NCBI GenBank assembly: GCA_017504245.1
Contig: JAFVRQ010000051.1
Coordinates: 23,456 to 87,455, forward strand
Direction of reading: 5' to 3'
Length of the DNA: 64,000 nucleotides
Source of the DNA: Clostridia bacterium
GTDB taxonomy: Bacteria; Bacillota; Clostridia; Oscillospirales; CAG-272
Below the pieces are notes generated by a model. It was not told the origin of the DNA. It ran no database searches and was given only the letters and a program-made list of their open reading frames with translations. Numbering within the stretch: the first letter of the stretch is position 1; every line of letters starts with the position of its first letter. Of this stretch, positions 26,130-57,955 are shown one piece after another. The translations under genes and the position numbers were made by a program.

Positions 26130-28718
26130 ATGAAAAAGAAGCTTACTATTGGAATTCTTGCTCACGTTGATGCTGGAAAAACCACACTTTCCGAGGCATT
26201 GCTCTATATTTCGGGCAAGATAAGAACGCTTGGGCGCGTTGACCACAAGAACACCTTTCTTGATACGAATGCCATTGAGCGCGAGCGCGGTATTACTATT
26301 TTTTCAAAGCAAGCGCGTTTTTCAACTAAAAACTGCGATTTTATTCTCCTTGATACACCGGGGCACGTTGATTTTTCGGCGGAAACTGAAAGAGTACTTT
26401 CACTTCTTGATTATGCAATTTTGGTTATCAGCGCTGCGGATGGAGTGCAAAATCACACGCGCACGCTCTGGAATTTACTTGAATACTATAATGTTCCTAC
26501 CTTTATTTTCGTTAACAAAAGTGATATTGCTATAAAAACTAAGGACGAGCAAGAGGCGGAGATTGCTTCAATTCTATCTCATAATTGTGTTGCGTTTTTC
26601 GATACTCAATCAAAGCGCGAGCTTGATGAAAAATTGGCGCTTGTTAATGAGGCCTTTTTAGAGGATTTTCTCTCGGAAACGCCTATTGAAGATGCCGAAA
26701 TTGCAGAACTGATTTCCGAGAGAGCTTTGTTTCCAATCGTTTTTGGATCTGCGCTCAGAATGTCCGGAATTGATTTTTTGCTTGAAGTTATAGATAAATA
26801 TTCCCTTTCTCCGGTTTATGAAAATGATAAATTTGGCGCAAAGGTTTATAAAATCTCGCGCGCGGGCAACACTCGTCTATCTTATATGAAGATTACGGGC
26901 GGTACTCTTTCTGCGCGTGATGAGATTTCGTATCTTACGTCGGACGGAAAAAGAGTTGTTGAAAAGATAAGTCAGATACGTCTTTATTCGGGTGATAAAT
27001 TTGAGCAGGTCGAAAGTGCCATTGCAGGTGAGATTTGCGCGGTAATCGGGCTTTCATCCACCTATGCAGGTCAGGGTCTTGGTTTGGAGTGTGACTCCTG
27101 CAAGCCCGTTCTTGAGCCCGTATTATCATATAGAATAATTCTGCCCGAGGGGTGCGATCCTAATTTGTATTTTCCAAAATTTAAGGAGCTTGAGGAGGAG
27201 GAGCCGTCTCTCCACCTTTATTGGAGCTCTGAGCTTTCGCAGATTGAAGCGCGTCTTATGGGTGAGATACAAATCGACCTTTTGAAACGATTGATTTTTG
27301 ACAGATTTAATATTGAATGTCAGTTTGGCGCAGGTAATATTTTATACAAGGAAAAAATCAAATCAAAAGCCATTGGTATAGGTCATTTTGAGCCGCTTCG
27401 CCATTACGCAGAGGTGCAGCTTTTACTTGAACCGCAGCCAAAGGGTACGGGGTTAATTTTTGACACTAAAATACCTGAAAATATGCTTGCAATAAATTGG
27501 CAACGTCTTATTTTGTCACATTTATACGAGAAAAACCACCGCGGTGTGCTTACGGGCGCATTGCTCACCGATACTAAGATTACTCTTGTGGCAGGAAAAT
27601 CACACCTGAAGCATACTGAGGGCGGAGATTTCCGCGAGGCGACCTTGCGTGCGGTACGTCACGGGCTTATGGTTGGCGGTTGTACTCTACTTGAGCCGTA
27701 TTATAAATTCAGATTGGAAATTCCCTCTTCGCTTGTTGGCAGAGCGATGAACGATCTGCAACTGAGGATCGCGGAATTTGAAATTGAAAGCACCACCGAG
27801 GATTTTGCGAACATCACAGGTCGAGCCCCCGTTTCAACGCTTCACGATTACGTGGGTGAGGTGATTTCATATACGCGCGGAATTGGTCGATTGACTTGCG
27901 TGAGTGACGGATATGACGAGTGCCACAATCAAGAGGAAATTGTTGCAAAAACGGGATATGACCCCGAGGGTGATATGGAAAATTCGCCACACTCGGTTTT
28001 CTGCTCACACGGAGCAGGTATTGTGATAAATTGGCGCGAGGTGGAACAGCACAAGCATCTTGATGCAGGTATTTCACTTACTCAAAACGATGTTGCGGTT
28101 ATTCCGAGGGTATCTTCCCTTGCTAAAAAATTTTCCTTGACGGACGAAGAAGTCGAGGCGATTATGACGCGCGCATTCGGTCCGATAAGACGCAAGAAAT
28201 ACAGTGAGCCGAAGGTGATTTCGGCAGGCAAATCAAAGCCGAATAAAAAGGCGTTAATAAAGCAAGAAAGTATGATTATAATTGACGGATATAATCTTAT
28301 CTATGCTTGGGACACTTTAATTGAAATTGCCGATTATTCGCTTGAAAAGGCTCGTGAAACGTTGATGGATATTTTGTCAAATTACGTTGCATTTACAAAG
28401 GAAAGCTTAGTGCTCGTTTTTGATGCTTATCTTGTTAACGAGGGAGTGGGCTCGGAATTTCAGCGCGATGGCTACAAGGTAGTTTTCACAAAGGAAAATC
28501 AAACGGCAGACGCCTATATTGAACGAATGATGCACGAGCTTGGTCCTAACTACAAAATCAGAGTTGTTACGGGTGATAGGCTCGTTCAGTTCGCGGCAGT
28601 TCATTCGGGCATATCTCGAATGACCGTTAAGGAGTTCGTTGACGAGCTTATCACGGTTGGGAATGAGATTAATGATTTTGTGAAGAAGTTAACGGAAAAA
28701 CAAGAATTTATAAAATAA
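26130..28718 (+). CDS. Tet(M)/EF-G-type translational GTPase fused to a C-terminal YacP/Rae1-like NYN ribonuclease domain
   Basis: G1 AHVDAGKTT, G3 DTPGH, G4 NKSD, and TetM-like colinearity to about aa 640. Residues ~715-862 read IIIDGYNLIYAW / VLVFDAYLV / VVFTKENQTADAYIER / IRVVTGD, matching B. subtilis YacP blocks. Confidence 0.85.
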   Translation: MKKKLTIGILAHVDAGKTTLSEALLYISGKIRTLGRVDHKNTFLDTNAIERERGITIFSKQARFSTKNCDFILLDTPGHVDFSAETERVLSLLDYAILVISAADGVQNHTRTLWNLLEYYNVPTFIFVNKSDIAIKTKDEQEAEIASILSHNCVAFFDTQSKRELDEKLALVNEAFLEDFLSETPIEDAEIAELISERALFPIVFGSALRMSGIDFLLEVIDKYSLSPVYENDKFGAKVYKISRAGNTRLSYMKITGGTLSARDEISYLTSDGKRVVEKISQIRLYSGDKFEQVESAIAGEICAVIGLSSTYAGQGLGLECDSCKPVLEPVLSYRIILPEGCDPNLYFPKFKELEEEEPSLHLYWSSELSQIEARLMGEIQIDLLKRLIFDRFNIECQFGAGNILYKEKIKSKAIGIGHFEPLRHYAEVQLLLEPQPKGTGLIFDTKIPENMLAINWQRLILSHLYEKNHRGVLTGALLTDTKITLVAGKSHLKHTEGGDFREATLRAVRHGLMVGGCTLLEPYYKFRLEIPSSLVGRAMNDLQLRIAEFEIESTTEDFANITGRAPVSTLHDYVGEVISYTRGIGRLTCVSDGYDECHNQEEIVAKTGYDPEGDMENSPHSVFCSHGAGIVINWREVEQHKHLDAGISLTQNDVAVIPRVSSLAKKFSLTDEEVEAIMTRAFGPIRRKKYSEPKVISAGKSKPNKKALIKQESMIIIDGYNLIYAWDTLIEIADYSLEKARETLMDILSNYVAFTKESLVLVFDAYLVNEGVGSEFQRDGYKVVFTKENQTADAYIERMMHELGPNYKIRVVTGDRLVQFAAVHSGISRMTVKEFVDELITVGNEINDFVKKLTEKQEFIK

Positions 28719-33642: not shown

Positions 33643-34239
33643 ATGAAACAGTTAACATTTAAACAGTACCGTCAAATTGATTTGACAATTCTTTGCTTAC
33701 TGACCGCGGTTTTTGAAGCAATCGCAACATATTCTTCAAATTATTGGTTGGTATTTCAGGCAATGACGATTTCAGTAACGTTAACGGTTACCTGCATCAC
33801 TATGGTGCGCTGGAACGGCTATGCTATAGCACCCGCACTCGTGGGTTCGTTCGTTTACTGCTTGGTTTCGGGGGCATCACCAAAGCAATTCTTTATTTAT
33901 TGCTTCGGAAGTGCTTTCTGCTTGTTTTCACTGCTTCTTTTCAAAAAGTTCAGAAAAGAAAATATTAATTCAAGCTTTGCAATAAGACTTGCCTTCGTTT
34001 TATCCACCTATTTGTTCATTGCCCTTGGCAGATGGATATGCTCTCTGCCCTTTGAGTTTAGCCTTGGTTCTATTCTCGCATTTATCTTCACCGACGTTCT
34101 TTCGCTCATCTTTGCAATTTTCGTTCTTACTCTTGCAAAAAATGCTGACGGGCTTATTGAAGACCAAAAATCATATTTGCTCCGACTGGAAAAGAAACGC
34201 CTTGAAGAGCAGGAAGCTAATTTAAACCACCGTTATTAA
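33643..34239 (+). CDS. Polytopic membrane protein of unknown function (first gene of the pectin locus)
   Basis: About 5-6 hydrophobic helices and a charged C-terminal tail (LRLEKKRLEEQEANL). Weak RBS. No recognised motif. Confidence 0.45.
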   Translation: MKQLTFKQYRQIDLTILCLLTAVFEAIATYSSNYWLVFQAMTISVTLTVTCITMVRWNGYAIAPALVGSFVYCLVSGASPKQFFIYCFGSAFCLFSLLLFKKFRKENINSSFAIRLAFVLSTYLFIALGRWICSLPFEFSLGSILAFIFTDVLSLIFAIFVLTLAKNADGLIEDQKSYLLRLEKKRLEEQEANLNHRY

Positions 34240-34279: not shown

Positions 34280-35344
34280 ATGAAATTAAAAGCAGTTGAT
34301 TACCTCGTGTTAGACGAGAAAACAGGAAAATACAGAGAGGACCCCGAGCAGCTTGTTCGAGATGAAGTTGAGAAGCACCGTTGGAAGCACGTCGGCTTAA
34401 CAATCCTCAAGGATTGGCGTCTTTATCTAATGCTCGTTCCTATGCTCCTCGTATTCTTCTTTTGGAGATATATGCCAATGTATGAGCTACTTTCCTGCTT
34501 CAAGGTTTACGATGCAAACCTGCCCGTTGCGGATCAGCTCTATTCCGGCTTTAGTTATTTTAAGGAGCTTTTTGCGGGCGAAACACCTCTTTCGCAGGAG
34601 TTTTGGCGCGCCTTCCGTAACACGTTCGTAATTTCCTTCTACGGCTTGTGCTTCGGCTTCCCTATGCCCATCATCATCGCTCTTTTCTTTAATGAGATTA
34701 AATCAAATATTGCGCGAAGCGTTTATCAGGTGCTTACATACCTACCGAAATTCATTTCAACGGTTGTTATGACAACCCTTGTTTCACTTTTGGTTCGTCA
34801 GTCATCAAGCGCGGGCGCGGGAATACAAATGGGTATTATATCTCAATTGCTTTACAATCTCGGTATCATTACAGAGGAGGTTGGTAATGCGGGCTTGCTC
34901 AATAACCCCGATTTCTTCCGTCCCATCTATCAGATAACGGGTATTTGGGAAACTGCCGGCTATGACAGTATCGTATTCTTCGCGGCAATTATCGCCATCT
35001 CTCCCACAAGCTACGAGGCGGCGCAGATCGACGGCGCAAATAAATGGGCGCAGATGAGATATGTGGTTCTTCCGAGTATTCTCTCAACTATCGTTATTAT
35101 GCTTATCACAAGAATTGGTTCTCTTCTTAACGTTGGTTATGAAAAGGTTCTTCTTCTTTATAACGATAAAACATACGTTACTGCCGACGTTGTTTCAACG
35201 TTTGCTCAGCGTAACGGTCTTTCAAGCTCGTTCCTTATCGGTATTTCGAGTGCTGCTGAGATGTTAAACAACGTTGTTGGTATGCTCCTTGTAATCGGTG
35301 CTAACACCATTGCAAGAAAGGCATCGGACGTTTCACTCTATTAA
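34280..35344 (+). CDS. Carbohydrate ABC transporter permease (LplB/YtcP-type)
   Basis: Six TM helices with an EAA-loop region (YEAAQIDGANKWAQMRYVVLPS). Long N-terminal cytoplasmic extension. Confidence 0.85.
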   Translation: MKLKAVDYLVLDEKTGKYREDPEQLVRDEVEKHRWKHVGLTILKDWRLYLMLVPMLLVFFFWRYMPMYELLSCFKVYDANLPVADQLYSGFSYFKELFAGETPLSQEFWRAFRNTFVISFYGLCFGFPMPIIIALFFNEIKSNIARSVYQVLTYLPKFISTVVMTTLVSLLVRQSSSAGAGIQMGIISQLLYNLGIITEEVGNAGLLNNPDFFRPIYQITGIWETAGYDSIVFFAAIIAISPTSYEAAQIDGANKWAQMRYVVLPSILSTIVIMLITRIGSLLNVGYEKVLLLYNDKTYVTADVVSTFAQRNGLSSSFLIGISSAAEMLNNVVGMLLVIGANTIARKASDVSLY

Positions 35345-35364: not shown

Positions 35365-36249
35365 ATGAAAAGAAAGCTTGAAATATCAGAACTGATCTTT
35401 AAAATTATCAGTTACGTTTTACTTACTGTTTTTGCTCTTTGCTGTCTTTATCCTTTCGTTTTCGCTATTTCATCGGCTATAAGCGGTCGAAGTGTTGTTG
35501 AGCAGGGCGGAATAATCCTTTTCCCGAAACAGATTCAGTTTGAGGCGTTCAAGGTAATGTTTGAGGACAATATGTTCTGGAACGCTTATGCGAATACCCT
35601 TTTCCTTACCTTCTACGGTACACTTTGGGCAATGGGTGTTGCTATACTTGGCGCTTACGCGCTCTCAAAGAAAAGATTGCTCTTCAGAAAGGGCTTCAAT
35701 TTCTTCCTCGTATTCACGATGTGGTTCTCTGCAGGTATTTTGCCTCAGTACAGAAATTATATCAACACGCGAAACGTTTTCCAATCCGTTGGTATTATGG
35801 ACGACAAATGGCTCGTAGTTATTGCAATGGGTATGGCGGCGATGAATATCATCCTTCTTCGTAACGCGTTTGAGGGTGTTCCCTCTGAAATTGAGGAAGC
35901 GGCTATCGTTGACGGAGCTACCGAAATGCAGGTGCTTACAAACGTTTATTTGCCAATGAGCAAATCCACGATTGCAACAGTTGCTTTGTTCTTCGCAATC
36001 TCCCGATGGAATGGTTACTTCTGGGCAAAGCAGATGATTTCGAAGTATCAGGAGCATCCCTTACAGGTATTCATTCGTTTGAAGCTTGAGGAAATTCAGA
36101 ACCCAGAATTGATTTGGGCAGAGCCCTATGCTGCGGACTCAGCAATTTATGCGCTCGTTATTTGCGCTATCATTCCCATCCTTATTATTTATCCCTTCAT
36201 TCAAAAGTATTTTGCAAAGGGCGTAAATATGGGTGGCGTTAAGGAATAA
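35365..36249 (+). CDS. Carbohydrate ABC transporter permease (LplC-type)
   Basis: EAA loop EEAAIVDGATEMQVLTNVYLPMS. Six TM helices. Confidence 0.85.
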   Translation: MKRKLEISELIFKIISYVLLTVFALCCLYPFVFAISSAISGRSVVEQGGIILFPKQIQFEAFKVMFEDNMFWNAYANTLFLTFYGTLWAMGVAILGAYALSKKRLLFRKGFNFFLVFTMWFSAGILPQYRNYINTRNVFQSVGIMDDKWLVVIAMGMAAMNIILLRNAFEGVPSEIEEAAIVDGATEMQVLTNVYLPMSKSTIATVALFFAISRWNGYFWAKQMISKYQEHPLQVFIRLKLEEIQNPELIWAEPYAADSAIYALVICAIIPILIIYPFIQKYFAKGVNMGGVKE

Positions 36250-36333: not shown

Positions 36334-38490
36334 ATGAAAAAAGTAAGAATTTTATCGTTGGTACTCGCACTCGTAATGATGGCAGCTTGTCTCACAGCTT
36401 GCCCACCAAAGACACCAACAACAACAAAAACTCCCGAAGTAGTTGACCCTAACAAGGCAAACTATGAAGCGGCAGTTGATCTCGCTCAGGAATGGGGCAC
36501 AGAAACATATCTCTATTATAAGCAGATGGCTTATGATAGACTTATGAACTACTTCAAGAATCCCACTAACCAGACAATCGACGGCTATACTCTTTCCTAT
36601 GCTCCCGGCACAGTATTGAGAATGGCAACAGGTTACAACAACAAGGACACAGGCCTTTTCTTCTCTGATAAGGTTGGCGAAGGTGTTAAACTTGCAGATG
36701 GTAAAACTTACCACACAGGCGAGCTTAAGCCCACTTGGGTTGAGGTTGAAAACAAGCTCGGTGTTAAATTTGAAAACAAATATCAAGGTAACAGTGCTAA
36801 TAATGAATTCAAATATTGGCAGGAACAGCTTGACCAGGTTGATATGGTTTCCGGTACTGCAACTCAGCTTTCTGAAGCAGGTGTAGCAGGTAAGCTCGTT
36901 AACCTTGCCCAGTATCTTGACGCAATGCCCAACTTCAAGGCTTATCTTGAAGCTAACCCCATCGTTCTTCTCTCTATTACAGGTAACGTTGAAAACGGCG
37001 CTATATATTACTCACCCTACTTTGACGGTGTTGATGATATCGAACGTATGCCTCTTATGAGAACTGACTGGGTTGAAAAGCTCCTCAACGGTGAGGGCGC
37101 ATTCACAGCTTCTGCTTCTCTTAACCTCAAGGCAGCTGCTTACACACCTTATATGCCCACAAGCGGTAAAGTAACAGTTGATGCAGCTAACAAGGCAGGT
37201 ACGGCAGTTATCCAGCTCACAAAGGACTATGATGCAGCAGGCAATATCGTTAAAACTATGAACGATGCACTTGCAGCAGGCACAGTAACGGGTGTTCAGG
37301 CAGTTAATATGCTTCGTGACTATATCGATAAAGCATACGGCGGTTACTATGGCACAAACAGAGCTGACCTCTTCATCGGTCAGGATGCTGCTTGGGACGC
37401 AGACGAGCTTGTTGCTCTTCTTCGTTGCGTAGTTGCTAACCCCCAGACACTCAATGGTACAGAAATCGTTCACGGTCTCTTCTCTCGTGAAGACCACAAC
37501 AACCAAAGACGTATTGATATGTTCCGTTTTGCAGGAACACTCTTCGGTGTAAGAGGTCTTGAATCCCGTCAGGATTACCTTTACGTTGGTACGGACGGTC
37601 TCCTTCACGATGCTCGTCAGGAAGAGGACACATACGTTGCTCTTGCAAGAATGAATGCAATGGTTCAGGAAGGTCTTATCTCCTCTACATTTGCAGCTCA
37701 GGAAAAGAACGACACAGCTACAATGCTTGAATACGACCAGGGCTTTATGCACTACGACTACAACCAGACTCAGACTGTTTATAATGAAACAAAGCTTCAG
37801 GAAGGCGAAGCTTATATGGCAGTTATGGTTCCCGTTGCTCGTTGGTATGACGGTTCTAACGAAAATGGCGTTTATATGAGATTTACAGAATCATGGAGAT
37901 CCGTTAAGACAGACGGTTGGGCTATCTCTCTTGCAGGCGTTGGCAACGACAAGAATAAGCTCGATGCAGCTCTTAAGCTTATCGACTTTGCATACAGCCC
38001 CGAAGGTCAGATCCTTATGTCTTACGGTCCCGATGCATTCATTAAGATGGAAAACGGCGAATACGTAACATTTAACTTCAACGGTAAGGAAATGCCCGTT
38101 ATTGCTGATGCTACATTTGCAGAACTTTGGTCTTTGGCAGCAGGTAACTATACTAACTATGCTCGTATTTATCTTGGTTCTACTCTTTCCTTCGTAAAGA
38201 GCCAAGCGTTCGAATATCAGTGCACAGCTATTGCCGGTAAGGTAGGCGCAGGTAAGATTTCTACAGCTATCGGTCTTGGACTTATTAAGCATCCATTGCT
38301 TGCAGTTGTTGAAGATAATCCTTGGTACAGCATCGTGCCCACTTCTCTTCCCACAACATCTGAAGAAAATGACGAAATCGCTAAGCTCACCAACTTGTCG
38401 TCCAACGGTAAGTATTCTCAATCCAAGGACCAATACAGTCTCCTTGTTGACATCATCGCAAACGGTTTTGAAGTTCTTGATGAACAGTAA
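36334..38490 (+). CDS. Extracellular solute-binding lipoprotein (large LplA-type, 718 aa)
   Basis: Lipobox LTAC. Positioned after two CUT1-like permeases. Considerably longer than usual family members. Confidence 0.8.
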   Translation: MKKVRILSLVLALVMMAACLTACPPKTPTTTKTPEVVDPNKANYEAAVDLAQEWGTETYLYYKQMAYDRLMNYFKNPTNQTIDGYTLSYAPGTVLRMATGYNNKDTGLFFSDKVGEGVKLADGKTYHTGELKPTWVEVENKLGVKFENKYQGNSANNEFKYWQEQLDQVDMVSGTATQLSEAGVAGKLVNLAQYLDAMPNFKAYLEANPIVLLSITGNVENGAIYYSPYFDGVDDIERMPLMRTDWVEKLLNGEGAFTASASLNLKAAAYTPYMPTSGKVTVDAANKAGTAVIQLTKDYDAAGNIVKTMNDALAAGTVTGVQAVNMLRDYIDKAYGGYYGTNRADLFIGQDAAWDADELVALLRCVVANPQTLNGTEIVHGLFSREDHNNQRRIDMFRFAGTLFGVRGLESRQDYLYVGTDGLLHDARQEEDTYVALARMNAMVQEGLISSTFAAQEKNDTATMLEYDQGFMHYDYNQTQTVYNETKLQEGEAYMAVMVPVARWYDGSNENGVYMRFTESWRSVKTDGWAISLAGVGNDKNKLDAALKLIDFAYSPEGQILMSYGPDAFIKMENGEYVTFNFNGKEMPVIADATFAELWSLAAGNYTNYARIYLGSTLSFVKSQAFEYQCTAIAGKVGAGKISTAIGLGLIKHPLLAVVEDNPWYSIVPTSLPTTSEENDEIAKLTNLSSNGKYSQSKDQYSLLVDIIANGFEVLDEQ

Positions 38491-38527
38491 TTATTAACTG
38501 TCAGTTAATTAAATAAAGGCGGGGGGC

Positions 38528-38549
38528 TTTCCCCCCGCCACAAAAAACA
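38528..38549 (+). other. GC-only 9-bp stem-loop after the SBP gene (no U-tract)
   Basis: GGCGGGGGG-CTTT-CCCCCCGCC. Followed by ACAAAAAAC, so it is not a canonical intrinsic terminator on the + strand. Confidence 0.35.
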
Positions 38550-38623
38550 CTCAACACTATTTATTTTTTCTTGCTTATAAAAAATATATGCCGTCGTTTT
38601 TTGACGGCGGATTGGAAATTACT

Positions 38624-39217
38624 ATGTATAAATTACAAATGAAATTGCAGAAATTGATTACACTTTTCTGCCTCGCGGCTGCCGCGCTTACCTTTATATA
38701 TTCTCTTGGTGTTTCCACCGACGCATATTTTCTCCGCTCGGTAAAAAGTCTTGGTAAGGAAGTGCCCGGTTCTGAAATGTACGTTGAAATGCAGCCATTT
38801 AATAAGCTTTTCACAACACTCAGCATCGTTCTTATTCTTTTAGCTGTTTCTTGCTTGGTTTTCAACAATCACAAAAACAGAAAATATTACTTTGCAAACT
38901 ATTGTACCACTATATTAAGCTCCGTTGCAAGCATCGGTGTTGCAATTTGGGCTTTTATAAACGTATTTCATTATAAAGCTAAATTCCTTGCAGTTGATTA
39001 TTCAAACCTTACTTCAGTTCCAGATAAGGTGTTGCAAAACGCGGGCATTGACCCCGAAAACGTTATGGGTCCTTATTCTACCTTCTGGTTTGATATTTCA
39101 ATTTTGGTTCTTTCTATTCTCATAATCGCTTCGTTATTGAATATAGCCAATATGATTTTCAAAATGATGCTTATGAAGGAAGAAAAAAGAGTTTTGAAGA
39201 ACGGAGGAATGCTATAA
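38624..39217 (+). CDS. Small polytopic membrane protein, unknown function (P1)
   Basis: About four hydrophobic helices. Alternative start at 38588. Its stop overlaps the next start (ATAATG). Confidence 0.45.
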   Translation: MYKLQMKLQKLITLFCLAAAALTFIYSLGVSTDAYFLRSVKSLGKEVPGSEMYVEMQPFNKLFTTLSIVLILLAVSCLVFNNHKNRKYYFANYCTTILSSVASIGVAIWAFINVFHYKAKFLAVDYSNLTSVPDKVLQNAGIDPENVMGPYSTFWFDISILVLSILIIASLLNIANMIFKMMLMKEEKRVLKNGGML

Positions 39218-39699
39218 TGAATAAAATTACCGATATTAAAAGCGATAGAATGAGATATACGAAGAATTCGACCTCTGCTACTCTATCCTATATCGCTATT
39301 CTCTTTAACGCATTATATTTCTTAAGTATTTATCACTCTGACGTTGGTACGTTCTATTACAAAATGCAGATTGGATTTTCGGTTATCTATAACCTCCTCT
39401 TTATGCTCTTCGTGTTCCTTTCCTCCGAAGGCGTGAAAAAATACAGTATGAAATATTCGGTTGTTTTGATTGTAATTGGCGCTATGCAGATAGTTAGAAT
39501 TTTCGGAATTCCCCTTGACGCTCTCAATTCAACCGCTATCATTAAGCGAGTTGAGGTTCCCGTTATGGAAACGAGACAATTTATTATGTGCGTGATTTAC
39601 CTCATTACCTCCGCATCCCTTACTATTGCGGGCGGTGTTATTGGCGTTATCAAAACTAAAAAACTCAGAGAGTACGAGAAAACCTTGATCTCTCAATAA
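39217..39699 (+). CDS. Small polytopic membrane protein, unknown function (P2)
   Basis: GGAGGA RBS inside the end of P1. About four hydrophobic helices. No known motif. Confidence 0.5.
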   Translation: MNKITDIKSDRMRYTKNSTSATLSYIAILFNALYFLSIYHSDVGTFYYKMQIGFSVIYNLLFMLFVFLSSEGVKKYSMKYSVVLIVIGAMQIVRIFGIPLDALNSTAIIKRVEVPVMETRQFIMCVIYLITSASLTIAGGVIGVIKTKKLREYEKTLISQ

Positions 39700-39724
39700 T
39701 TTCAAGAAAGGTCTTGAGTATTTT

Positions 39725-40789
39725 ATGGCTTCTTTAACATTAAATAATATTAACAAGATATACGACAACAAAGTTCAAGCTGTTTTTGATTTTAATATTG
39801 ATATTGATGACGGCGAGTTTATCGTGCTTGTCGGTCCTTCCGGCTGCGGAAAGTCAACTACCCTTCGTATGATTGCGGGACTTGAGGATATTACCTCGGG
39901 TCAGCTACTTATCGACGGTAAGGACGTTACTCAGATGCCTGCCAAGGATAGGGATATTGCTATGGTTTTCCAAAACTATGCTCTTTACGGACATATGACA
40001 GTTTACGAAAATATGGCTTTCTCACTCACTCTCCGCAAGGAAGATCCAAACGTTATTCACGAGAAGGTTCTTGCGGCGGCTGAAATACTCGGTCTTACCG
40101 ACCAGCTTAACAAAAAACCAAGACAGCTCTCGGGCGGTCAGCGTCAACGTGTTGCTATGGGACGTGCCATCGTTCGTACTCCCAAGGTGTTCCTATTTGA
40201 CGAGCCGCTTTCTAACCTTGATGCAAAGCTCAGAGGTGCGACAAGACGAGAAATTTTGCTTTTGCATAAGCGTCTTGGCACTACGATGATATACGTTACT
40301 CACGACCAAACCGAAGCTCTTACGCTCGCAGACAGAATTGTTTGTATGTCTATGGGCTACGTTCAGCAAATTGGTACTCCGCTTGAGCTTTATGACACCC
40401 CCGCCAATACTTTCGTTGCGAGCTTTATCGGTCTTCCACCTATGAATTTCTTTGACGGCAAAATTGAAAACGGATGCTTCGTTTGTCCTTCCTTCACTGC
40501 TCCGCTCAGTGCTGCTCAAAAGGAGCTGCTTGCTTCATATGAGGGCAAAGAAATCATTCTTGGCGCACGACCCGAAAATATCGTTCAGGATGATAGCGGC
40601 TACATTGATCTTAAGGTTACTCTTAATGAGAATCTTGGTCAAACCACCCTTGTTCACGGCACTGTCGCCGGTCATAAGGTTACTGCCAAATTCCGTGAGT
40701 GGTGCAATTACAAGCCCGAGGATCATGTGTTGACATCCATCAACAATATGCATTTCTTTGATAAAGAAACGACTAATGCCATCAGATAA
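39725..40789 (+). CDS. MalK/MsmK/UgpC-type sugar ABC transporter ATP-binding protein (copy 1)
   Basis: Walker A GPSGCGKST, LSGGQRQRVAMGRA, Walker B LFDEPLSNLD, and a C-terminal TOBE-like regulatory domain. Confidence 0.9.
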   Translation: MASLTLNNINKIYDNKVQAVFDFNIDIDDGEFIVLVGPSGCGKSTTLRMIAGLEDITSGQLLIDGKDVTQMPAKDRDIAMVFQNYALYGHMTVYENMAFSLTLRKEDPNVIHEKVLAAAEILGLTDQLNKKPRQLSGGQRQRVAMGRAIVRTPKVFLFDEPLSNLDAKLRGATRREILLLHKRLGTTMIYVTHDQTEALTLADRIVCMSMGYVQQIGTPLELYDTPANTFVASFIGLPPMNFFDGKIENGCFVCPSFTAPLSAAQKELLASYEGKEIILGARPENIVQDDSGYIDLKVTLNENLGQTTLVHGTVAGHKVTAKFREWCNYKPEDHVLTSINNMHFFDKETTNAIR

Positions 40790-40800
40790 GGAATTTTATT

Positions 40801-41328
40801 ATGAAAATTAAAGAAATTTACCGTAAATTTATCGTATCGCTAAAGCGCAATCCTCAGTCTATTCCACTCGTGGCTTTGGCACTTTCGTTTGTGTATTATT
40901 CTTTTAATCTTACAAACATTTCTCAAACAACCGCTTTGATAAATGCAAAGCATATGGGGCTTTCTTGCTTTATTACTATGCTTTTCTCGATTTTATCGTT
41001 TGTTTGCTTGCTCAATGCGTTTCCAAAGCGTAAAAAGCCAAATATATTTATGATCATTCTCTTTGCCGTTATGACAATAATTATCGTTTATTGCGATAGC
41101 TATTATTTCGGCTTGATAGAAAAATCTACTATTTTGATTAACGATATGAGATTGTTCGTGCCTAAAGCCAAAATGGTTGTTGGAACACATGTTTTGCTTA
41201 TGTCTATCACGCTCTCTCTTACCTATTTAGAGCCCGTTATTGCTAAGCTTTTGAAAAAAATCAACACCTCTATTGAGGTCGAGGATAACGGAACAATTGA
41301 TGCTATTGATATTACCGACGAAGAATAA
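40801..41328 (+). CDS. Small polytopic membrane protein, unknown function (P3)
   Basis: About four hydrophobic helices and an acidic C-terminal tail. AAGGA RBS. Confidence 0.5.
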   Translation: MKIKEIYRKFIVSLKRNPQSIPLVALALSFVYYSFNLTNISQTTALINAKHMGLSCFITMLFSILSFVCLLNAFPKRKKPNIFMIILFAVMTIIIVYCDSYYFGLIEKSTILINDMRLFVPKAKMVVGTHVLLMSITLSLTYLEPVIAKLLKKINTSIEVEDNGTIDAIDITDEE

Positions 41329-41334
41329 TTTATA

Positions 41335-41925
41335 ATGGCAAATAAAAAGCACAACAACTATTCCACCCATTCCGACGCGGTTGACCGCCTTGTAAACGCC
41401 GATAAAAAGGACTATGGCAAGGAGGGAAAGCTCAATGACCCGGGAAAAAAATACAGAAGTGGTTTTTTCGACAGAATTCCAGCACCCGTTAAAGCTTTAT
41501 TTATAAAATTTTGGTTTTACGGTGCAGTTTGCTTCTTTATATTCTGGGGATTAAGCATTGTTGATTCCTTGGATGCTTTGGTTATTATGTCCGTTGTTAT
41601 TGGCTTTGTTAACGACATTCTCGTTAACAATATTCTTAGATTTATTGAAATCATCCCGGGTGAAAACGCAAAATGGATGATGTTTACAAAGAAAAAATAC
41701 TGGACTCTTCCCGCCAACGTTCTTTACGCATTCGTTGTTTTCTATTGCGTTAGAACACTATACGTGATAATCAACCTTTTGGGTGCGCCTATCGGTTTTT
41801 ATATCGGCGTGGAGCCCATCCTGTTTGGTGTTTTCTTTACGTTAATCGATATTTTATTCATCAGAATGAAAATGCTTATGAATACCATCATTAAAGATGC
41901 TCAAGATAAGGTAAACAAACAATAA
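41335..41925 (+). CDS. Small polytopic membrane protein, unknown function (P4)
   Basis: Hydrophilic ~50-aa N-terminus followed by about four hydrophobic helices. Lies 6 nt after P3 and 1 nt before GH28. Confidence 0.5.
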   Translation: MANKKHNNYSTHSDAVDRLVNADKKDYGKEGKLNDPGKKYRSGFFDRIPAPVKALFIKFWFYGAVCFFIFWGLSIVDSLDALVIMSVVIGFVNDILVNNILRFIEIIPGENAKWMMFTKKKYWTLPANVLYAFVVFYCVRTLYVIINLLGAPIGFYIGVEPILFGVFFTLIDILFIRMKMLMNTIIKDAQDKVNKQ

Positions 41926-41926
41926 T

Positions 41927-43468
41927 ATGCTTAAAACTTTATTCGTTTCATCAAGCTCTGCGTGCTTTGAGTGGGAGAATGAGCTTCCCTATTACGCAGA
42001 GCGTCAATACACGGTGTATCTCAACGGAGAACAAGTCTTGACCGCTGACACAAACGTATTCTCTTTGTTTGGACTTGCTCCCGATACAGAATACCGTCTT
42101 ACAACCTCTATAAATAATGAGGATACGGTAACTTTTAAAACAAAAAAGGATACCTGCGTTATCAACGTTTTGGATTTCGGCGCCAATGCTGACGGATTAA
42201 ATGATGATACTCTCGCTATTCAAACGGCTATTAACTGTTTGCCGCGCGGCGCAAAGCTTATCTTTCCCTCGGGTCAGTATTTGACTTCTCCTATCTGCCT
42301 TAAAAGTCATATAACAATTGAATTGGCTGAGGGCGCAAGCATTCTCGGTCATACAGACACGGCGCGCTATCCTGTTATACCCGGTCATCTTTACGATATG
42401 GTTTCGGGAGATTTGGTTGAGTTCGGCTCTTGGGAGGGCAATTCCGTTCCTATGCACCAATCGTTGATTTTTGCCGAATATGCCGAGGATATTACCATTA
42501 TTGGTCCCGGTACGGTTGACGGAAATGCTCAGAATTCTATTTGGTGGCAAAATCCCAAGGCACCGATTGCTCGTCCGCGTCTTCTCTTCTTTAACAGATG
42601 TAAGAATGTTCGCGTTCACGGTATCGTTGCGCAGAATTCTGCCTCCTGGCAGCTTCATCCCTATTATTCGCAAAATATTGATTTCCTTGATATTTCCATT
42701 TTCGCTCCTAAGAATAGTCCCAACACGGATGCTATCGATCCTGAGGCGTGCGACCTCGTTAAAATTATCGGCTGTAAGTTCTCAGTTGGTGACGATTGCA
42801 TAGCAATTAAATCCTCGAAAATCGATATGGCAAGTATTTATAAAACCCCCGCAAACCGCCACACTATCCGCAACTGCTTGATGCAATTCGGTCACGGCGC
42901 GGTTACTCTCGGTAGTGAGATGAGCGGCGGTGTTACTAATCTTACCGTTAACCGTTGCGTATTCAGAAAGACAGACCGCGGCTTGAGGATCAAAACCCGT
43001 CGCGGACGCGGTAAATACGCTATAATTGACGGTGTATTATTTGAAAACATAAAAATGGAAGGCGTTATTACCCCTATTGCTATCAATATGTGGTATAACT
43101 GCTGTGATCCCGACAGATTTTCTGAGTACGTTTGGTCTCGTGAGAGGCTCCCCGTTGACGATAGGACCCCATATCTTGGCGATTTTACATTCAAAAATAT
43201 GGTTTGTACCGATTGTGAGGCGGCAGCTTGCTACTGTGACGGACTCCCCGAACGCCCCATAAAATCAATTACCCTTGATAACATTCACTTCACCTTTTCA
43301 AACGATGCAAAGCCCTTCGTTCCGATTATGCAGAACTTTGCAGAGCCTGTTTGCAAAATGGGAATGTATATTGACAACGTTGAAACCCTTACGGTCACCA
43401 ATATTACAATTGAAGGGCACGAGGGCGATGATTTAATCGCTAAAAACGTTGGAAAAATTATAAAATAA
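41927..43468 (+). CDS. Glycoside hydrolase family 28 (exo-polygalacturonase-like), no signal peptide
   Basis: NTDAIDP, GDDCIAIKS, FGHGAVTLGSE and RGLRIKTRRGRG are the four GH28 signature blocks. Has an N-terminal FN3-like extension. Confidence 0.85.
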   Translation: MLKTLFVSSSSACFEWENELPYYAERQYTVYLNGEQVLTADTNVFSLFGLAPDTEYRLTTSINNEDTVTFKTKKDTCVINVLDFGANADGLNDDTLAIQTAINCLPRGAKLIFPSGQYLTSPICLKSHITIELAEGASILGHTDTARYPVIPGHLYDMVSGDLVEFGSWEGNSVPMHQSLIFAEYAEDITIIGPGTVDGNAQNSIWWQNPKAPIARPRLLFFNRCKNVRVHGIVAQNSASWQLHPYYSQNIDFLDISIFAPKNSPNTDAIDPEACDLVKIIGCKFSVGDDCIAIKSSKIDMASIYKTPANRHTIRNCLMQFGHGAVTLGSEMSGGVTNLTVNRCVFRKTDRGLRIKTRRGRGKYAIIDGVLFENIKMEGVITPIAINMWYNCCDPDRFSEYVWSRERLPVDDRTPYLGDFTFKNMVCTDCEAAACYCDGLPERPIKSITLDNIHFTFSNDAKPFVPIMQNFAEPVCKMGMYIDNVETLTVTNITIEGHEGDDLIAKNVGKIIK

Positions 43469-43486: not shown

Positions 43487-44614
43487 ATGTACGCAAAAAT
43501 TGATGCTTATATCGAAAAATTGCTTAATTGCTCTACACCCGACGCGCCAATTTGGAATATTGAAAGCATCCGGCAAGGCAAAAAACCGCATTGGAACTAC
43601 ATTGACGGTTGTATGATTACTTCCCTTCTTGAAATAGGAAGAATAAGCGGAAATCCAAAATATTTTGATTTTGCTGAGAGGTTTATAGATTACTACGTTT
43701 TTGATGACGGTACAATTCGCGGCTACGATATTGAAAAATATAATCTTGATGATCTTAATGAAGGCAGGGTGCTTTTTGAGCTTTATGAGAAGACGGGAAA
43801 GGAAAAATACCGTCTTGCTATAGAGCATCAGGCACTTCAGCTTAAATGTCAGCCGAGAACCTCGACGAATAATTTTTGGCACAAGCTGATTTATCCCAAT
43901 CAGATTTGGCTTGACGGTCTTTATATGGCGCAGGTATTCAGCACGAAATATCAAAAATATAAGGGCGATAAGGATTATTCTGATATTTTGATGCAAATAA
44001 AGAACGTTAGAAAATATATGTTTGACGAGCAAATCGGGCTTTATTATCACGGACTTGATTGCTCAAAATCAATCTTTTGGGCGGACAAGGCAACGGGGCT
44101 TTCAAAGAATTTCTGGCTCCGCGCTATAGGTTGGTACACCGTTGCTATGATTGATATTATTGAAATCTGCGACGATGAAACTGTGCGCTCAGAAATTTCG
44201 GCAATTTTCTCGGAGCTTATGCATTCCGTGATTCAATATCGCGATGATGAAAGCAAAATGTATTATCAGGTTGTTAATCTTTCGGAGCGCGAGGGCAACT
44301 ACCTTGAAACGAGCGGCTCGTCAATGCTTGCTTACGCAATGCTTAAGGGTGCAAGACTTAACGTTCTTCCCTCTGAATTTGCTATTTACGGCAAGGAAAC
44401 CTTTGACGGAATTTGTAGGAAATATTTGAAGATTTCAAAAGATGGTGATTTGAACCTTTCCGGCATTTGCTTGGTCGCAGGTCTTGGCCCTGAAAATAAT
44501 ACAAGACGTGACGGAAGCTTTGAATATTATATATCCGAGCCCGTTGTTGAGAATGACGCAAAGGGTGTTGCTCCCTTCATTCTCTGCTATACTGAAATTT
44601 TAAGGAACATATAA
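43487..44614 (+). CDS. Unsaturated rhamnogalacturonyl/glucuronyl hydrolase (GH105/GH88, YteR-like)
   Basis: WNYIDGCMITSLLE, NFWHKLIYPNQIWLDGLYMAQVF and FWLRAIGWY blocks are typical of GH105. Confidence 0.8.
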   Translation: MYAKIDAYIEKLLNCSTPDAPIWNIESIRQGKKPHWNYIDGCMITSLLEIGRISGNPKYFDFAERFIDYYVFDDGTIRGYDIEKYNLDDLNEGRVLFELYEKTGKEKYRLAIEHQALQLKCQPRTSTNNFWHKLIYPNQIWLDGLYMAQVFSTKYQKYKGDKDYSDILMQIKNVRKYMFDEQIGLYYHGLDCSKSIFWADKATGLSKNFWLRAIGWYTVAMIDIIEICDDETVRSEISAIFSELMHSVIQYRDDESKMYYQVVNLSEREGNYLETSGSSMLAYAMLKGARLNVLPSEFAIYGKETFDGICRKYLKISKDGDLNLSGICLVAGLGPENNTRRDGSFEYYISEPVVENDAKGVAPFILCYTEILRNI

Positions 44615-44626
44615 TTAGGTAAAAGT

Positions 44627-45490
44627 ATGAAATTAATGGTTCGCGCCCACGATCTCGGTGTAAAAGGCGCAGATAATATAAACAACCGCTTACTTGAGCT
44701 CGGGCTTGACGGAGTTCAATTCGTGGCATACAAGTCTATCGAAGGTGTTTCGTATGCTCCAAATCAAATGACACGTGAGATGGCAGCTGATATTTCAAAC
44801 AAAATCAAAGCGAACGGCAAGGATATTGCGCTGATTGGCGCGTATTTCAATCCCGTTCATCCCAATACTGCAAAGATTGACAACGGAATTGCGGTTTTTC
44901 GAGATTATATTTCGTTGGCAAGGACGATTGGTTGCGATTACGTTGGAAGTGAGACGGGTTCTTATAACGGCGACCCTTGGATTTATCATCCGATGAATCA
45001 CTCCGATGAGGCGCTTTACAGAGTTGTTGATACCTTCTCTTCTCTTGCTGACTTTGCCGCAGAAAATGGAGTCAATATCGCAATTGAAGGCGCATTCGGT
45101 CACGTTTGTCACACCCCCGAACGCTTAAAGCTCGCGTTTGATAGAATGGGTAAGGATAACGTCAAGTTTATATTTGACTTATATAATTATCTTGATATTT
45201 CAAACGTTGACTCAGCTTACGATATTTTAGAGCGCGGCTTAAATTTGCTAGGTGACAGAATTCTTTTATTCCACATTAAAGATTTTGTTATTGAGAATAA
45301 CAAGTTAAAGCAATGCGGAGTTGGCAGGGGTATTCTTGATTACGATAGAATTCTTAGTGCAATTTTTGGCCACAACCCCAACGCAATCTTGGTATTGGAA
45401 GGAACTGTTTTAGATGATCTTCCCTTTGCAATTTCCTATTTAAAGGATAAAATAAACAAATTTGAAACTGACCGCAGGGTCGTTAAATAA
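44627..45490 (+). CDS. Sugar phosphate isomerase/epimerase (xylose isomerase-like TIM barrel)
   Basis: AP_endonuc_2-type pattern: IAIEGAFGHVCHTPERL and LFHIKD. 287 aa. Confidence 0.75.
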   Translation: MKLMVRAHDLGVKGADNINNRLLELGLDGVQFVAYKSIEGVSYAPNQMTREMAADISNKIKANGKDIALIGAYFNPVHPNTAKIDNGIAVFRDYISLARTIGCDYVGSETGSYNGDPWIYHPMNHSDEALYRVVDTFSSLADFAAENGVNIAIEGAFGHVCHTPERLKLAFDRMGKDNVKFIFDLYNYLDISNVDSAYDILERGLNLLGDRILLFHIKDFVIENNKLKQCGVGRGILDYDRILSAIFGHNPNAILVLEGTVLDDLPFAISYLKDKINKFETDRRVVK

Positions 45491-45498
45491 GGAGTCTT

Positions 45499-46587
45499 AT
45501 GGCATATTTATCTTTAAAAGACATCAACAAAATTTATCCCAACGGCTTTCACGCCGTTCACAACTTCAATCTTGAAATTGAGCAGGGCGAATTTATAGTT
45601 TTCGTTGGTCCTTCCGGCTGCGGAAAGTCCACCACCCTTCGTATGATTGCAGGTCTTGAGAATATAAGTAAGGGAGAATTTTATATAGACGGCAAGTATG
45701 CCAACGAGATGCGCCCACGTGAGCGCGGTGTTGCTATGGTTTTTCAAAGCTATGCTCTTTATCCTCACCTTTCGGTTTACGATAATCTTGCATTCGGTCT
45801 TTCACTTCAGGGTATTGACGAGGACGTTATTGAGGAAAGAGTTCTTGCAACCGCTAAAATTCTCGGTCTTTCCGATTATCTTGACAGAAAGCCCCGTGCT
45901 CTTTCGGGCGGTCAGCGTCAGAGAGTTGCAGTTGGTCGCGCTATTATTCGTAAGGTTGGTATCTTCCTTATGGACGAGCCCCTTTCTAACCTTGACGCAA
46001 AGCAGCGTGTTACGATGCGTTCTGAGATCACGGATATACATAGAAAGGTCGGTTCAACAACCATTTACGTTACTCACGACCAAACCGAAGCTATGACGAT
46101 GGCGGACAGAATCGTCGTTATGAAGGACGGCTACATTCAACAGGTTGGTAATCCTTATGAATTATATTTCAAGCCCGTTAACCTTTTCGTTGCAGGATTT
46201 ATCGGTGAGCCGCCTATGAACTTCGTTCGCGCAACGGTTAATGACGGCTGCGTTGAAATTGCAGGCGAAAAGCACGATCTTTCACTCGTTGTTGGTGAAA
46301 GAATCAATGAATACAATGGCAAGGACATTATGTTTGGCTTCCGCCCCGAAGCAATTTCGCTTGCGGAGGTTGAAAATTCATTCAAGCTCTCTGCTGACGT
46401 TGAGCTGACAGAGCTCCTTGGCGATAACACGAACGTTTACGTTGATATGATGGGTGACAAGGTTATTTTGAAGGTTGACCCACACGATACTCCTAAAATG
46501 GATACGAGGATTTCTTACTGTGTTCCACACAAGAACGTTTACCTCTTTGACGCGGAAACTGAGACTGTTATTAACAAGTATGAATAA
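45499..46587 (+). CDS. MalK/MsmK/UgpC-type sugar ABC transporter ATP-binding protein (copy 2)
   Basis: GPSGCGKST, LSGGQRQRVAVGRA and LMDEPLSNLD. Clearly a paralogue of 39725-40789, colinear over the full length. Confidence 0.9.
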   Translation: MAYLSLKDINKIYPNGFHAVHNFNLEIEQGEFIVFVGPSGCGKSTTLRMIAGLENISKGEFYIDGKYANEMRPRERGVAMVFQSYALYPHLSVYDNLAFGLSLQGIDEDVIEERVLATAKILGLSDYLDRKPRALSGGQRQRVAVGRAIIRKVGIFLMDEPLSNLDAKQRVTMRSEITDIHRKVGSTTIYVTHDQTEAMTMADRIVVMKDGYIQQVGNPYELYFKPVNLFVAGFIGEPPMNFVRATVNDGCVEIAGEKHDLSLVVGERINEYNGKDIMFGFRPEAISLAEVENSFKLSADVELTELLGDNTNVYVDMMGDKVILKVDPHDTPKMDTRISYCVPHKNVYLFDAETETVINKYE

Positions 46588-46589
46588 TA

Positions 46590-46627
46590 AAAAAAGAACA
46601 GGTAGCCGATTGGCTACCTGCTTTTTG
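46590..46627. terminator. Bidirectional rho-independent terminator
   Basis: CAGGTAGCC-GAT-TGGCTACCTG flanked by an A-run and CTTTTTG. Confidence 0.75.
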
Positions 46628-52683: not shown

Positions 52684-52880
52684 ATGAACACGCATTGTCA
52701 ACTTAACCAAAAACGAGTTACTCTTTTTGTTTAAATGTTAGAAAATGCTTGATTTTAGGGTGTTTATTATTAATTTGATACAAATTCGGTTGATTTTTTT
52801 GTTTAAATATGATAAAATATACACAATGGCATAATGTTTCAAAAATTACACTTATTGTGCTAAAGATTGGAGGATTTTTT

Positions 52881-57151: not shown

Positions 57152-57955
57152 TCAAGAGGGTTGCTTACCGAAGTATGCCTGAATACCGCCGTCAACGTAG
57201 AGGATTTGTCCGTTTACGAAGTCGGAGGCGCTTGAAGCGAGGAAAACTGCAGGGCCTGCGAGGTCCTCGGGGTCGCCCCAACGACCTGCGGGAGTTTTTG
57301 TATCGGTAATAAAGCTATCGAATGGGTGCTTACTGCCGTCTGCCTGTGGCTCACGGAGGGGCGCAGTTTGAGGAGTTGCGATATAGCCGGGGCCGATACC
57401 GTTGCACTGAATATTATACTGACCGTATTCGGAAGCAATATTTCTTGTGAGCATTTTAAGACCGCCCTTTGCGGATGCGTAAGCGGAAACCGTTTCACGT
57501 CCGAATTCACTCATCATTGAGCAGATGTTAATAATCTTACCACTTCTCTGCTTAATCATTGAAGGAAGAACTGCCTTTGAAACGATAAAGGGTGCGTTAA
57601 GGTCAACGTCAATTACCTGACGGAACTCACTTGCCTTCATTTCGATCATAGGAATTCTCTTAATAATGCCTGCATTGTTAACGAGAATATCGATAACGCC
57701 TACCTCTTTTTCAATCTGCGCTACCATAGCATTAACCGCATCTTCATCGGTAACGTCGCAAACGTAGCCCTCTGCCTCAATGCCGTCTGCAGCATAGGAA
57801 GCAAGACCACGATCAACAAATTCCTGCTTAATATCGTTGAAAACAATCTTTGCGCCTGCCGCGTGGAGTCCCTTTGCAATAGCATATCCGATACCGTAGG
57901 ATGCGCCCGTTATGAGAGCAACCTTGCCTTCAAGTGAAAAATTCTGAATACTCAT
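57152..57955 (-). CDS. kduD: 2-dehydro-3-deoxy-D-gluconate 5-dehydrogenase / gluconate 5-dehydrogenase-type SDR
   Basis: TGASYGIG cofactor motif and YxxxK (YASAKGG). Lies immediately downstream of kduI. Confidence 0.8.
   Translation of the reverse strand: MSIQNFSLEGKVALITGASYGIGYAIAKGLHAAGAKIVFNDIKQEFVDRGLASYAADGIEAEGYVCDVTDEDAVNAMVAQIEKEVGVIDILVNNAGIIKRIPMIEMKASEFRQVIDVDLNAPFIVSKAVLPSMIKQRSGKIINICSMMSEFGRETVSAYASAKGGLKMLTRNIASEYGQYNIQCNGIGPGYIATPQTAPLREPQADGSKHPFDSFITDTKTPAGRWGDPEDLAGPAVFLASSASDFVNGQILYVDGGIQAYFGKQPS

Follow-up and report, generated by a model that had tools for sequence, protein, structure and literature searches.

In the window analysed here, a 64,000-nucleotide (nt) stretch of Clostridia bacterium contig JAFVRQ010000051.1, five small membrane proteins, TM198 and P1−P4, are encoded in a nine-gene module together with the two permeases, the solute-binding protein and the embedded ATPase (ATPase A) of a predicted oligogalacturonide ATP-binding cassette (ABC) importer. 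Judged from sequence, gene order and predicted structures, the five may be accessory or regulatory subunits, or obligate partners, of this importer, with a likelihood that we put a little short of even. Such a role fits their strict co-inheritance better than the energy-coupling factor (ECF)-like role that had been considered in a preliminary description made from the DNA letters.

Conservation of the nine-gene module

The nine genes stand in a fixed order (TM198, permease 1, permease 2, binding protein, P1, P2, ATPase A, P3 and P4), which was kept, as far as the contigs reach, in 159 of the 160 P3/P4 loci; 85 modules were complete, the others ended at a contig edge and the sole exception was a split binding-protein gene. 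Two sets of loci were used. The first comprised 80 species-representative genomes, all of them metagenome-assembled genomes (MAGs) recovered from rumen or animal-gut material and placed in Lachnospiraceae, Oscillospiraceae, Ruminococcus, Christensenellaceae, Erysipelotrichaceae and one Sphaerochaetaceae, and the second comprised 75 metagenome loci seeded with distant P4 relatives (25–45% identical), in whose modules the nine-gene order was the same. The conservation of the P1–P2–ATPase–P3–P4 arrangement, named in the preliminary description as a point to be checked, was thereby borne out, as was the tie that it had suggested between the P proteins and a pectin-oligosaccharide ABC importer, with the protein encoded from position 33643 (TM198) belonging to the same fixed block. 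ATPase A lay between P2 and P3 in every module, including 85 of the 85 complete ones, and TM198 came before permease 1 in each of these 85; the nine-gene block was likewise found around a distant TM198 relative (43% identity). None of the five small proteins was seen outside this block among the loci examined, no fusions between module families were found in the 160 loci, and TM198 and the P genes, which flank the core genes, form no contiguous unit of their own. The nine families follow a common tree, their distance matrices correlating with r values of 0.85–0.98, so that the block has evolved as a unit.

Every context checked was one of pectin or galacturonate, and a gene for glycoside hydrolase family 28 (GH28) was the commonest one downstream of P4, distant modules included. 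In one type of locus, the module is followed by GH28, GH88, a triosephosphate isomerase (TIM) barrel protein and a second ATPase (ATPase B), and in another type by ATPase B and AraC directly; the distant modules carry GH28, a helix-turn-helix (HTH) protein, 2-keto-3-deoxy-6-phosphogluconate aldolase, GntR and KduI downstream and the TIM barrel upstream. Neighbouring regulators vary with module type, being AraC in some and GntR or PucR-HTH proteins in others. The AP_endonuc_2 TIM-barrel protein recurs on either side of the module (44627–45490 in the window; 916–1749 in locus L093).

Some contigs that carry the module had been binned to Sphaerochaetaceae, to Erysipelotrichaceae or even to a 'Corallococcus' MAG (L075, L082, L063, L067 and others), and catabolic neighbours such as UxaC were up to 94–95% identical to the window protein across MAGs of different taxonomic label, which speaks either for horizontal transfer of the entire locus or for errors in binning. 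In locus L002 (1–3548), ATPase A, P3, P4 and the downstream genes are 99.9% identical to those of L001, and the upstream part is unrelated from ~63 nt into the ATPase gene, with two secreted or hypothetical proteins in place of P1 and P2. This locus was set aside as a candidate module without P1 and P2, since its junction falls within the 5′ end of the ATPase gene and probably reflects an assembly chimera or recombination at this conserved end.

Gene layout and operon ends

All coordinates are positions in the window, and all listed genes are on the + strand (aa, amino acids):

33643–34239, + strand, TM198: 198-aa membrane protein that opens the module
34280–35344, + strand, permease 1: AlgM1/YteP/LplB-like type I ABC membrane subunit with an EAA loop (PF00528)
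35365–36249, + strand, permease 2: AlgM2/YtcP/LplC-like type I ABC membrane subunit with an EAA loop (PF00528)
36334–38490, + strand, solute-binding protein: 718-aa AlgQ-type lipoprotein with the lipobox LTAC
38518–38539, + strand, GC-rich hairpin: perfect 9-bp stem GGCGGGGGG/CCCCCCGCC, directly 3′ of the binding-protein gene
38624–39217, + strand, P1: 197-aa tetraspan protein (MBR2381500.1)
39217–39699, + strand, P2: 160-aa tetraspan protein
39725–40789, + strand, ATPase A: MalK/MsmX/AlgS-type ABC ATPase (ABC_tran and OB_MalK)
40801–41328, + strand, P3: 175-aa tetraspan protein
41335–41925, + strand, P4: 196-aa tetraspan protein
41927–43468, + strand, GH28 polygalacturonase, with no obvious signal peptide
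43487–44614, + strand, GH88-family match (PF07470), probably an unsaturated uronyl hydrolase
44627–45490, + strand, xylose-isomerase-like TIM-barrel protein (AP_endonuc_2)
45499–46587, + strand, ATPase B: second MalK/MsmX-type ATPase
46597–46622, no strand, bidirectional intrinsic terminator, the likely end of a 13-gene operon

The five tightly packed genes that had been described between the binding-protein gene and GH28 were confirmed as open reading frames (ORFs) at the positions listed above. The longest ORF for P1 spans 38588–39217; the true start was placed at 38624 because conservation among orthologues begins at MYKLQ and the GenBank call is of 197 aa. The start of P2 overlaps the stop of P1 (TAATG), with a GGAGGA at 39202–39207, 10 nt upstream of P2, and only 6 nt separate P3 from P4 and 1 nt P4 from GH28; these stop/start overlaps and gaps of 1–11 nt suggest translational coupling. 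P3 and P4 share a reading frame, with TAA and two codons between them, and stop-codon readthrough would fuse both. On the + strand, the hairpin at 38518–38539 is not followed by a T-tract, and its 3′ side is A-rich on the coding strand; it is probably an intra-operon stabiliser or attenuator rather than an operon end, and it looks as if it would lift binding-protein expression relative to P1−P4. GenBank, under locus tags IKA84_03260 to 03300 of this MAG, lists the five small proteins as hypothetical and ATPase A as UgpC.

The importer core and the two ATPases

Permease 1 was found to match AlgM1 in the PDB (4tqu_M) with an E value of 4.8e-63, the next best match, SugA, reaching only 9e-6, and EAA-type loops (YEAAQIDGA and IEEAAIVDGA) are readable in the permease translations. 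The 718-aa binding protein gave no match in Pfam, NCBIfam or a single-sequence PDB search, and its family profile retrieved AlgQ1/AlgQ2 at E values of 7e-27 to 4e-24 and Smon0123-type binding proteins at 2e-16; its invisibility to Pfam and NCBIfam is a gap in the family databases. This protein is about 200 aa longer than AlgQ, including a ~100-aa insertion near residues 222–325. The closest PDB sequences to ATPase A were an unnamed ABC ATPase (7x0q), MsmX (6yir, 2.5e-107) and AlgS (1.4e-102), and its Walker A and B motifs, Q-loop, signature and H-switch are intact and followed by a C-terminal OB domain. From the matches of permease 1, the binding protein and ATPase A, the core was identified as an AlgM1M2SS-AlgQ-type polyuronate importer adapted to oligogalacturonides. 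A textbook type I ABC importer consists of two permeases, an ATPase dimer and a binding protein, and the corresponding parts are all here (two EAA permeases, an AlgQ-type binding protein and a MalK/MsmX/AlgS-type ATPase with intact motifs). Nevertheless, the module is not confined to them, as five more membrane genes accompany them in 85 of the 85 complete modules.

ATPases A and B are 52% identical, with catalytic motifs intact in both, and only 23 positions are fixed differently between 124 ATPase A and 84 ATPase B sequences. The residues of the MalK EAA groove are retained in ATPase A (R47, Q82, A85, L86, Y87 and E94, in MalK numbering), and this canonical groove favours docking on the EAA loops of the permeases, although this is no proof, since the groove is generic and Firmicute CUT1 operons often draw on a shared ATPase. 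The embedded ATPase had been taken for an 'extra' one, a view that is reversed by the comparison of loci: ATPase A is present in every module, the 85 complete ones included, and ATPase B is found in window-type loci and is missing near the distant modules (none within 10 kb; L088 and L093–L105), so that A is the constant member and B the variable one. Additionally, ATPase B lies upstream of TM198, and not downstream, in L074, L076, L108 and L110.

The tetraspan proteins P1−P4

Family-averaged hydropathy gave four membrane helices for each P protein, and the basic N-termini, TM2–TM3 (second to third transmembrane helix) loops and C-termini imply an N-in/C-in topology. P1 has two larger outside loops of about 35 and 49 aa and a conserved cytoplasmic loop, R-x-x-Y-Y-x-x-N; in P2 the conserved cytoplasmic TM2–TM3 loop reads F-L-x-S-E-G-x-K-x-Y. 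In P3 the N-terminus is basic, the cytoplasmic loop carries PKRxKP and the C-terminal tail is acidic, and P4 has a conserved N-terminal region, probably cytoplasmic, and a conserved TM2–TM3 loop, PGENxKWMMF. The strongest-conserved motifs of P1, P2 and P4 are cytoplasmic. The TM2–TM3 loops of P1−P3, of about 12–15 residues, leave no room for conventional coupling helices. The AlphaFold model of P4, with a predicted local distance difference test (pLDDT) score of 79 and a predicted TM-score (pTM) of 0.73, comprises four long helices and a short helix within the TM2–TM3 loop, and invariant charged or polar residues (D94, N98/N99, E160 and D172) lie within its predicted membrane helices.

The earlier characterisation of the P proteins as unrecognised four-helix proteins without an EAA loop was upheld. 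Searches of P1−P4 against Pfam and NCBIfam gave nothing above noise, their family profiles found no relatives among PDB sequences, the P4 model matched no PDB fold in Foldseek (best E 3.2), and no EAA loop was found in any of them. Similarly, EcfT/CbiQ (PF02361) did not match P1−P4 in Pfam scans. YesL/DUF624-type homology, which would have offered a known accessory family, was not seen in sequence searches, PF04854 giving no match at E values up to 1 for TM198, P1−P4, 29 TM198 relatives or 40 P2 relatives. The five small proteins also showed no similarity to ion-transporter or secondary-transporter families in Pfam, NCBIfam and PDB sequence profiles or, for P4, by fold, and no published description of them was found in the literature that could be searched.

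The paralogy of P2 and P3 that had been suspected from their N-termini was not supported: hhalign gave this pair a probability of 1.1%, and permeases 1 and 2, run as a control, reached 96.8%. Every pair among TM198 and P1−P4 scored 0.2–5.9%, and no relation to the permeases came out above 5.9%. Both paralogy among the five and an ancestry in split permeases were therefore rejected, and the five are separate, previously unclassified families. The P1−P4 and TM198 genes are under strong purifying selection, the ratios of nonsynonymous to synonymous substitution rates (dN/dS) relative to the closest orthologous locus being 0.10, 0.04, 0.09 and 0.05 for P1, P2, P3 and P4, 0.07 for TM198 and 0.064 for ATPase A. 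P4 has 571 homologues in a set of 5.8 billion proteins, and in an exhaustive search it has 365 clusters when grouped at 50% identity; conservation of length, hydropathy and motifs extends down to 25% identity, and the extra part of longer P4 relatives consists of low-complexity charged tails only. The lack of known domains and of database names could be taken to mean that these short ORFs are functionless, either artefacts of annotation or relics in decay, an idea with next to no probability that is refuted by the dN/dS values of 0.04–0.10, the features kept to 25% identity and the gene order in 160 loci; chance ORFs were likewise ruled out by the 571 P4 homologues together with these dN/dS values.

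TM198 and its predicted S-component-like fold

The AlphaFold2 model of TM198 (pLDDT 85.5, pTM 0.78) was compared with the PDB by Foldseek, and the top seven matches were all ECF S-components, among them YkoE (5edl), ThiT (4tkr), the S chain of 4hzu, PanT and RibU. Probabilities were 0.69–1.00 and TM-scores 0.40–0.62, but E values were modest (0.03–0.9); the model of P4, used as a control for this search, gave no S-component match. The TM198 model shows the six-helix S-component fold, its exact helix count and topology being uncertain. Six residues are near-invariant in 82 sequences (E25, R56, W57, R130, D151 and D174), of which E25 and D151 are inside predicted membrane helices and R56, in helix 45–76, may be as well. 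A conserved C-terminal helix of 30 residues carries the motif DGxIEDQKxYLxRL. These near-invariant residues and the conserved helix fit a ligand-binding or signalling subunit.

The ECF-like idea stood in part only. TM198 has a predicted S-component-like fold, yet it lacks the sequence family and conserved AxxxA motif of S-components, and neither a T component nor an EcfA-type ATPase goes with it. Neither TM198 nor 29 members of its family matched an S-component sequence family such as PF12822 at E values up to 1; TM198 gave only noise in Pfam and NCBIfam, and its profile found no relative among PDB sequences, S-components included. AxxxA in helix 1 is not conserved: A22 occurs in 32 and A26 in 34 of the 82 sequences, with I, V, C or T as replacements at both positions. 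ATPase A is not of the EcfA type, as it scored 458 bits with the UgpC model (over the cut-off) and 148 bits with ECF_ATPase_1, for which the cut-off is 315. Docking of AxxxA on EcfT is needed for ECF assembly, and the S-component fold also occurs, without AxxxA, in the membrane domains of 5TMR-LYT sensor kinases and in MreD (Partipilo and Slotboom, PMC11109136).

Comparison with known systems

The closest known system is AlgM1M2SS-AlgQ1/Q2 of Sphingomonas sp. A1 (PDB 4tqu), in which permease 1, the binding protein and the ATPase have homologues and which likewise takes up polyuronate-derived acidic sugars by a type I importer. The module described here differs in adding five strictly co-inherited membrane proteins to the four subunit kinds, in having a lipoprotein about 200 aa longer as its binding protein, and in its host, a Gram-positive-type gut anaerobe, and context, which is pectin (GH28, GH88, UxaCAB and KduID). 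The permeases and binding protein are presumably of the same subfamily as YtcQP-YteP and YesOPQ of B. subtilis. YtcQP-YteP takes up galacturonic-acid oligomers with the shared ATPase MsmX, and MsmX and YurJ are similar ATPases more than 55% identical (PMC5730181), so that these Bacillus systems resemble the module in the kind of substrate, the MsmX-like ATPase and the occurrence of two similar ATPases (52% identical here); unlike the module, they have neither an operon-encoded ATPase nor P1−P4-like genes. Related permeases (37–40% identity) on Bacillus/Paenibacillus plasmids were found in loci containing only permease, permease, binding protein and GH88, and no DUF624 genes lay beside them in the two plasmid loci inspected.

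The likeness to ECF (type III) importers lies in the predicted S-component resemblance of TM198 and in small membrane subunits encoded around an ABC ATPase, whereas the S-component sequence family, a conserved AxxxA and an EcfT/CbiQ-like protein are all wanting and the ATPase is MalK-type. In the tripartite ATP-independent periplasmic (TRAP) and tripartite tricarboxylate transporter (TTT) systems, DctQ and TctB are small four-helix scaffold subunits beside binding-protein-dependent transporters, often of organic acids. The likeness to the P proteins is one of analogy only, with no sequence match in Pfam scans, and the module pairs an ABC importer with four distinct tetraspan proteins, not a single one. 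The 5TMR-LYT sensor kinase domains and MreD have, like TM198, an S-component fold without AxxxA (PMC11109136), which suggests a possible ligand-sensing or scaffold role; nevertheless, TM198 has no fused kinase, is not part of a cell-shape operon and is encoded with an ABC importer.

Possible roles of the five small proteins

As accessory or regulatory subunits or obligate partners, the five could work with the importer in the following way. Permeases 1 and 2 would form the pathway, receiving the acidic oligosaccharide from the AlgQ-like lipoprotein, and the embedded ATPase A is taken to be the module's own motor, with ATPase B a putative later add-on or general-purpose MsmK. The four tetraspan proteins and TM198 would be placed around the permease pair, might contact the ATPase via their conserved cytoplasmic loops and terminal helices, and would stabilise, gate or regulate. 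The S-component fold elsewhere binds small ligands, and TM198 may report or deliver a small uronate, relaying through its long C-terminal helix. This assignment is favoured by the co-inheritance of the five with the core, modules reached through P4 relatives of 25–45% identity included, by the canonical groove of ATPase A and the lack of a second ATPase within 10 kb of the distant modules, and by the pectin context found throughout. That the P proteins are partners and not a transport domain is suggested by the short TM2–TM3 loops of P1−P3, the cytoplasmic position of the best-conserved motifs of P1, P2 and P4, the signs of translational coupling and the low dN/dS values. Several points weigh against this assignment. 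Only four kinds of subunit make up the solved AlgM1M2SS (PDB 4tqu and related entries), and the extra proteins are not needed for the basic mechanism, since AlgM1M2SS and the Bacillus/Paenibacillus operons do without them. Firmicute CUT1 operons usually depend on a shared MsmX (PMC5730181), so that a different ATPase could serve the permeases and ATPase A could be reserved for the P proteins, as its place between P2 and P3 hints. The residual covariation of ATPase A, obtained as exploratory mirror-tree residuals, a weak measure carrying no significance test, was higher with TM198 (0.30), P4 (0.27) and P2 (0.22) than with the permeases (0.16 and 0.09). On the same measure, the controls permease 1–permease 2 and permease 2–binding protein reached 0.55 and 0.44 and the pair P3–permease 1 reached 0.39, trends that are compatible with a mixed contact map. 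A hybrid importer is possible, if on the doubtful side; in it, an AlgM1M2-type core would have an S-component-fold ligand-binding subunit and four tetraspan subunits as permanent additions, giving either an ECF-like second route powered by a MalK-type ATPase or a built-in ATPase-gating receptor.

A second transporter, ECF-like or otherwise non-canonical, in which TM198 captures the substrate, P1−P4 provide a novel scaffold and an ATPase A dimer drives transport, is considered unlikely. Its cargo might be galacturonate or the unsaturated monomer, and the AlgM-type permeases might then use ATPase B or a shared MsmK. Such a machine would agree with the top fold matches of TM198, which were only ECF S-components and were not given by the P4 control, with the ATPase gene between P2 and P3 in every module, with two ATPases in window-type loci, one per putative machine, and with the covariation of ATPase A, highest with TM198, P4 and P2; moreover, Firmicute CUT1 operons often depend on a shared MsmX and have no ATPase of their own (PMC5730181). 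Nevertheless, no P protein matches EcfT/CbiQ, the P4 fold matches nothing in the PDB, and the AxxxA docking motif is not conserved in TM198, while ATPase A is MalK-type with a canonical groove and the cytoplasmic loops of P1−P3 are too short for coupling helices. The core genes separate TM198 from the P genes, the five small proteins were not seen outside the nine-gene block and, which also counts against this idea, we know of no MalK-type ATPase that pairs with membrane domains lacking an EAA loop.

An equally low probability is given to an independent membrane complex, not driven by the ATPase, that serves oligogalacturonide use by charge or cation (Ca2+/Mg2+) compensation for polyanion import, by secondary uptake or by-product export, or by tethering the large binding lipoprotein. 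The polyanionic nature of the uronate substrates, the strict link to pectin loci, the invariant charged or polar residues within predicted helices of TM198 and P4 and the two sizeable outside loops of P1 are in keeping with it, but the small proteins resemble no ion or secondary transporter family, their genes are interleaved with that of the ATPase over a very long evolutionary span, and their conserved motifs are mostly cytoplasmic, suggesting a cytoplasmic partner. Very improbable is a signalling device in which TM198, as an S-fold receptor like the 5TMR histidine-kinase sensors, senses pectin products together with P1−P4 and controls transcription or another process instead of transport. 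The fold is common to ligand-sensing membrane domains that, like TM198, have no AxxxA (PMC11109136), and the long conserved cytoplasmic C-terminal helix would suit such a role; however, output domains such as a kinase or HTH are neither fused to these proteins nor conserved in the vicinity, the regulators next to the module change with its type, and four further membrane proteins would be left unexplained.

Other features of the window

The pectin locus reaches well past the operon, with a 1353-aa protein (52809–56870) that has a right-handed beta-helix region and is probably a large pectin-active enzyme, followed by KduD (57152–57955) and KduI (57971–58801). Elsewhere, an 862-aa ORF (26130–28718) joins EF-G-like GTPase domains to a C-terminal YacP-like NYN nuclease domain, an unusual fusion, and the ORFs at 3747–4826 (359 aa) and 8401–9684 (427 aa) had no Pfam match at E values up to 1e-5. 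Rfam and tRNA scans of the window were empty.

Significance

The kind of importer core is known, and what is new is the five-protein addition, one member of which has an S-component fold. An importer subfamily akin to the solved alginate importer thus carries five extra conserved, uncharacterised membrane-protein families, which are offered for database curation; all the carriers found are uncultured. If the five are subunits, they would represent a new accessory layer for ABC importers, and the S-component-fold member would form a bridge between type I and ECF-type systems or contribute a receptor function; should the hybrid importer prove true, its subunit architecture would differ from that of every ABC importer class described. 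Uncultured pectin-degrading Clostridia of the rumen and gut widely carry the module, which therefore bears on the use of dietary fibre.

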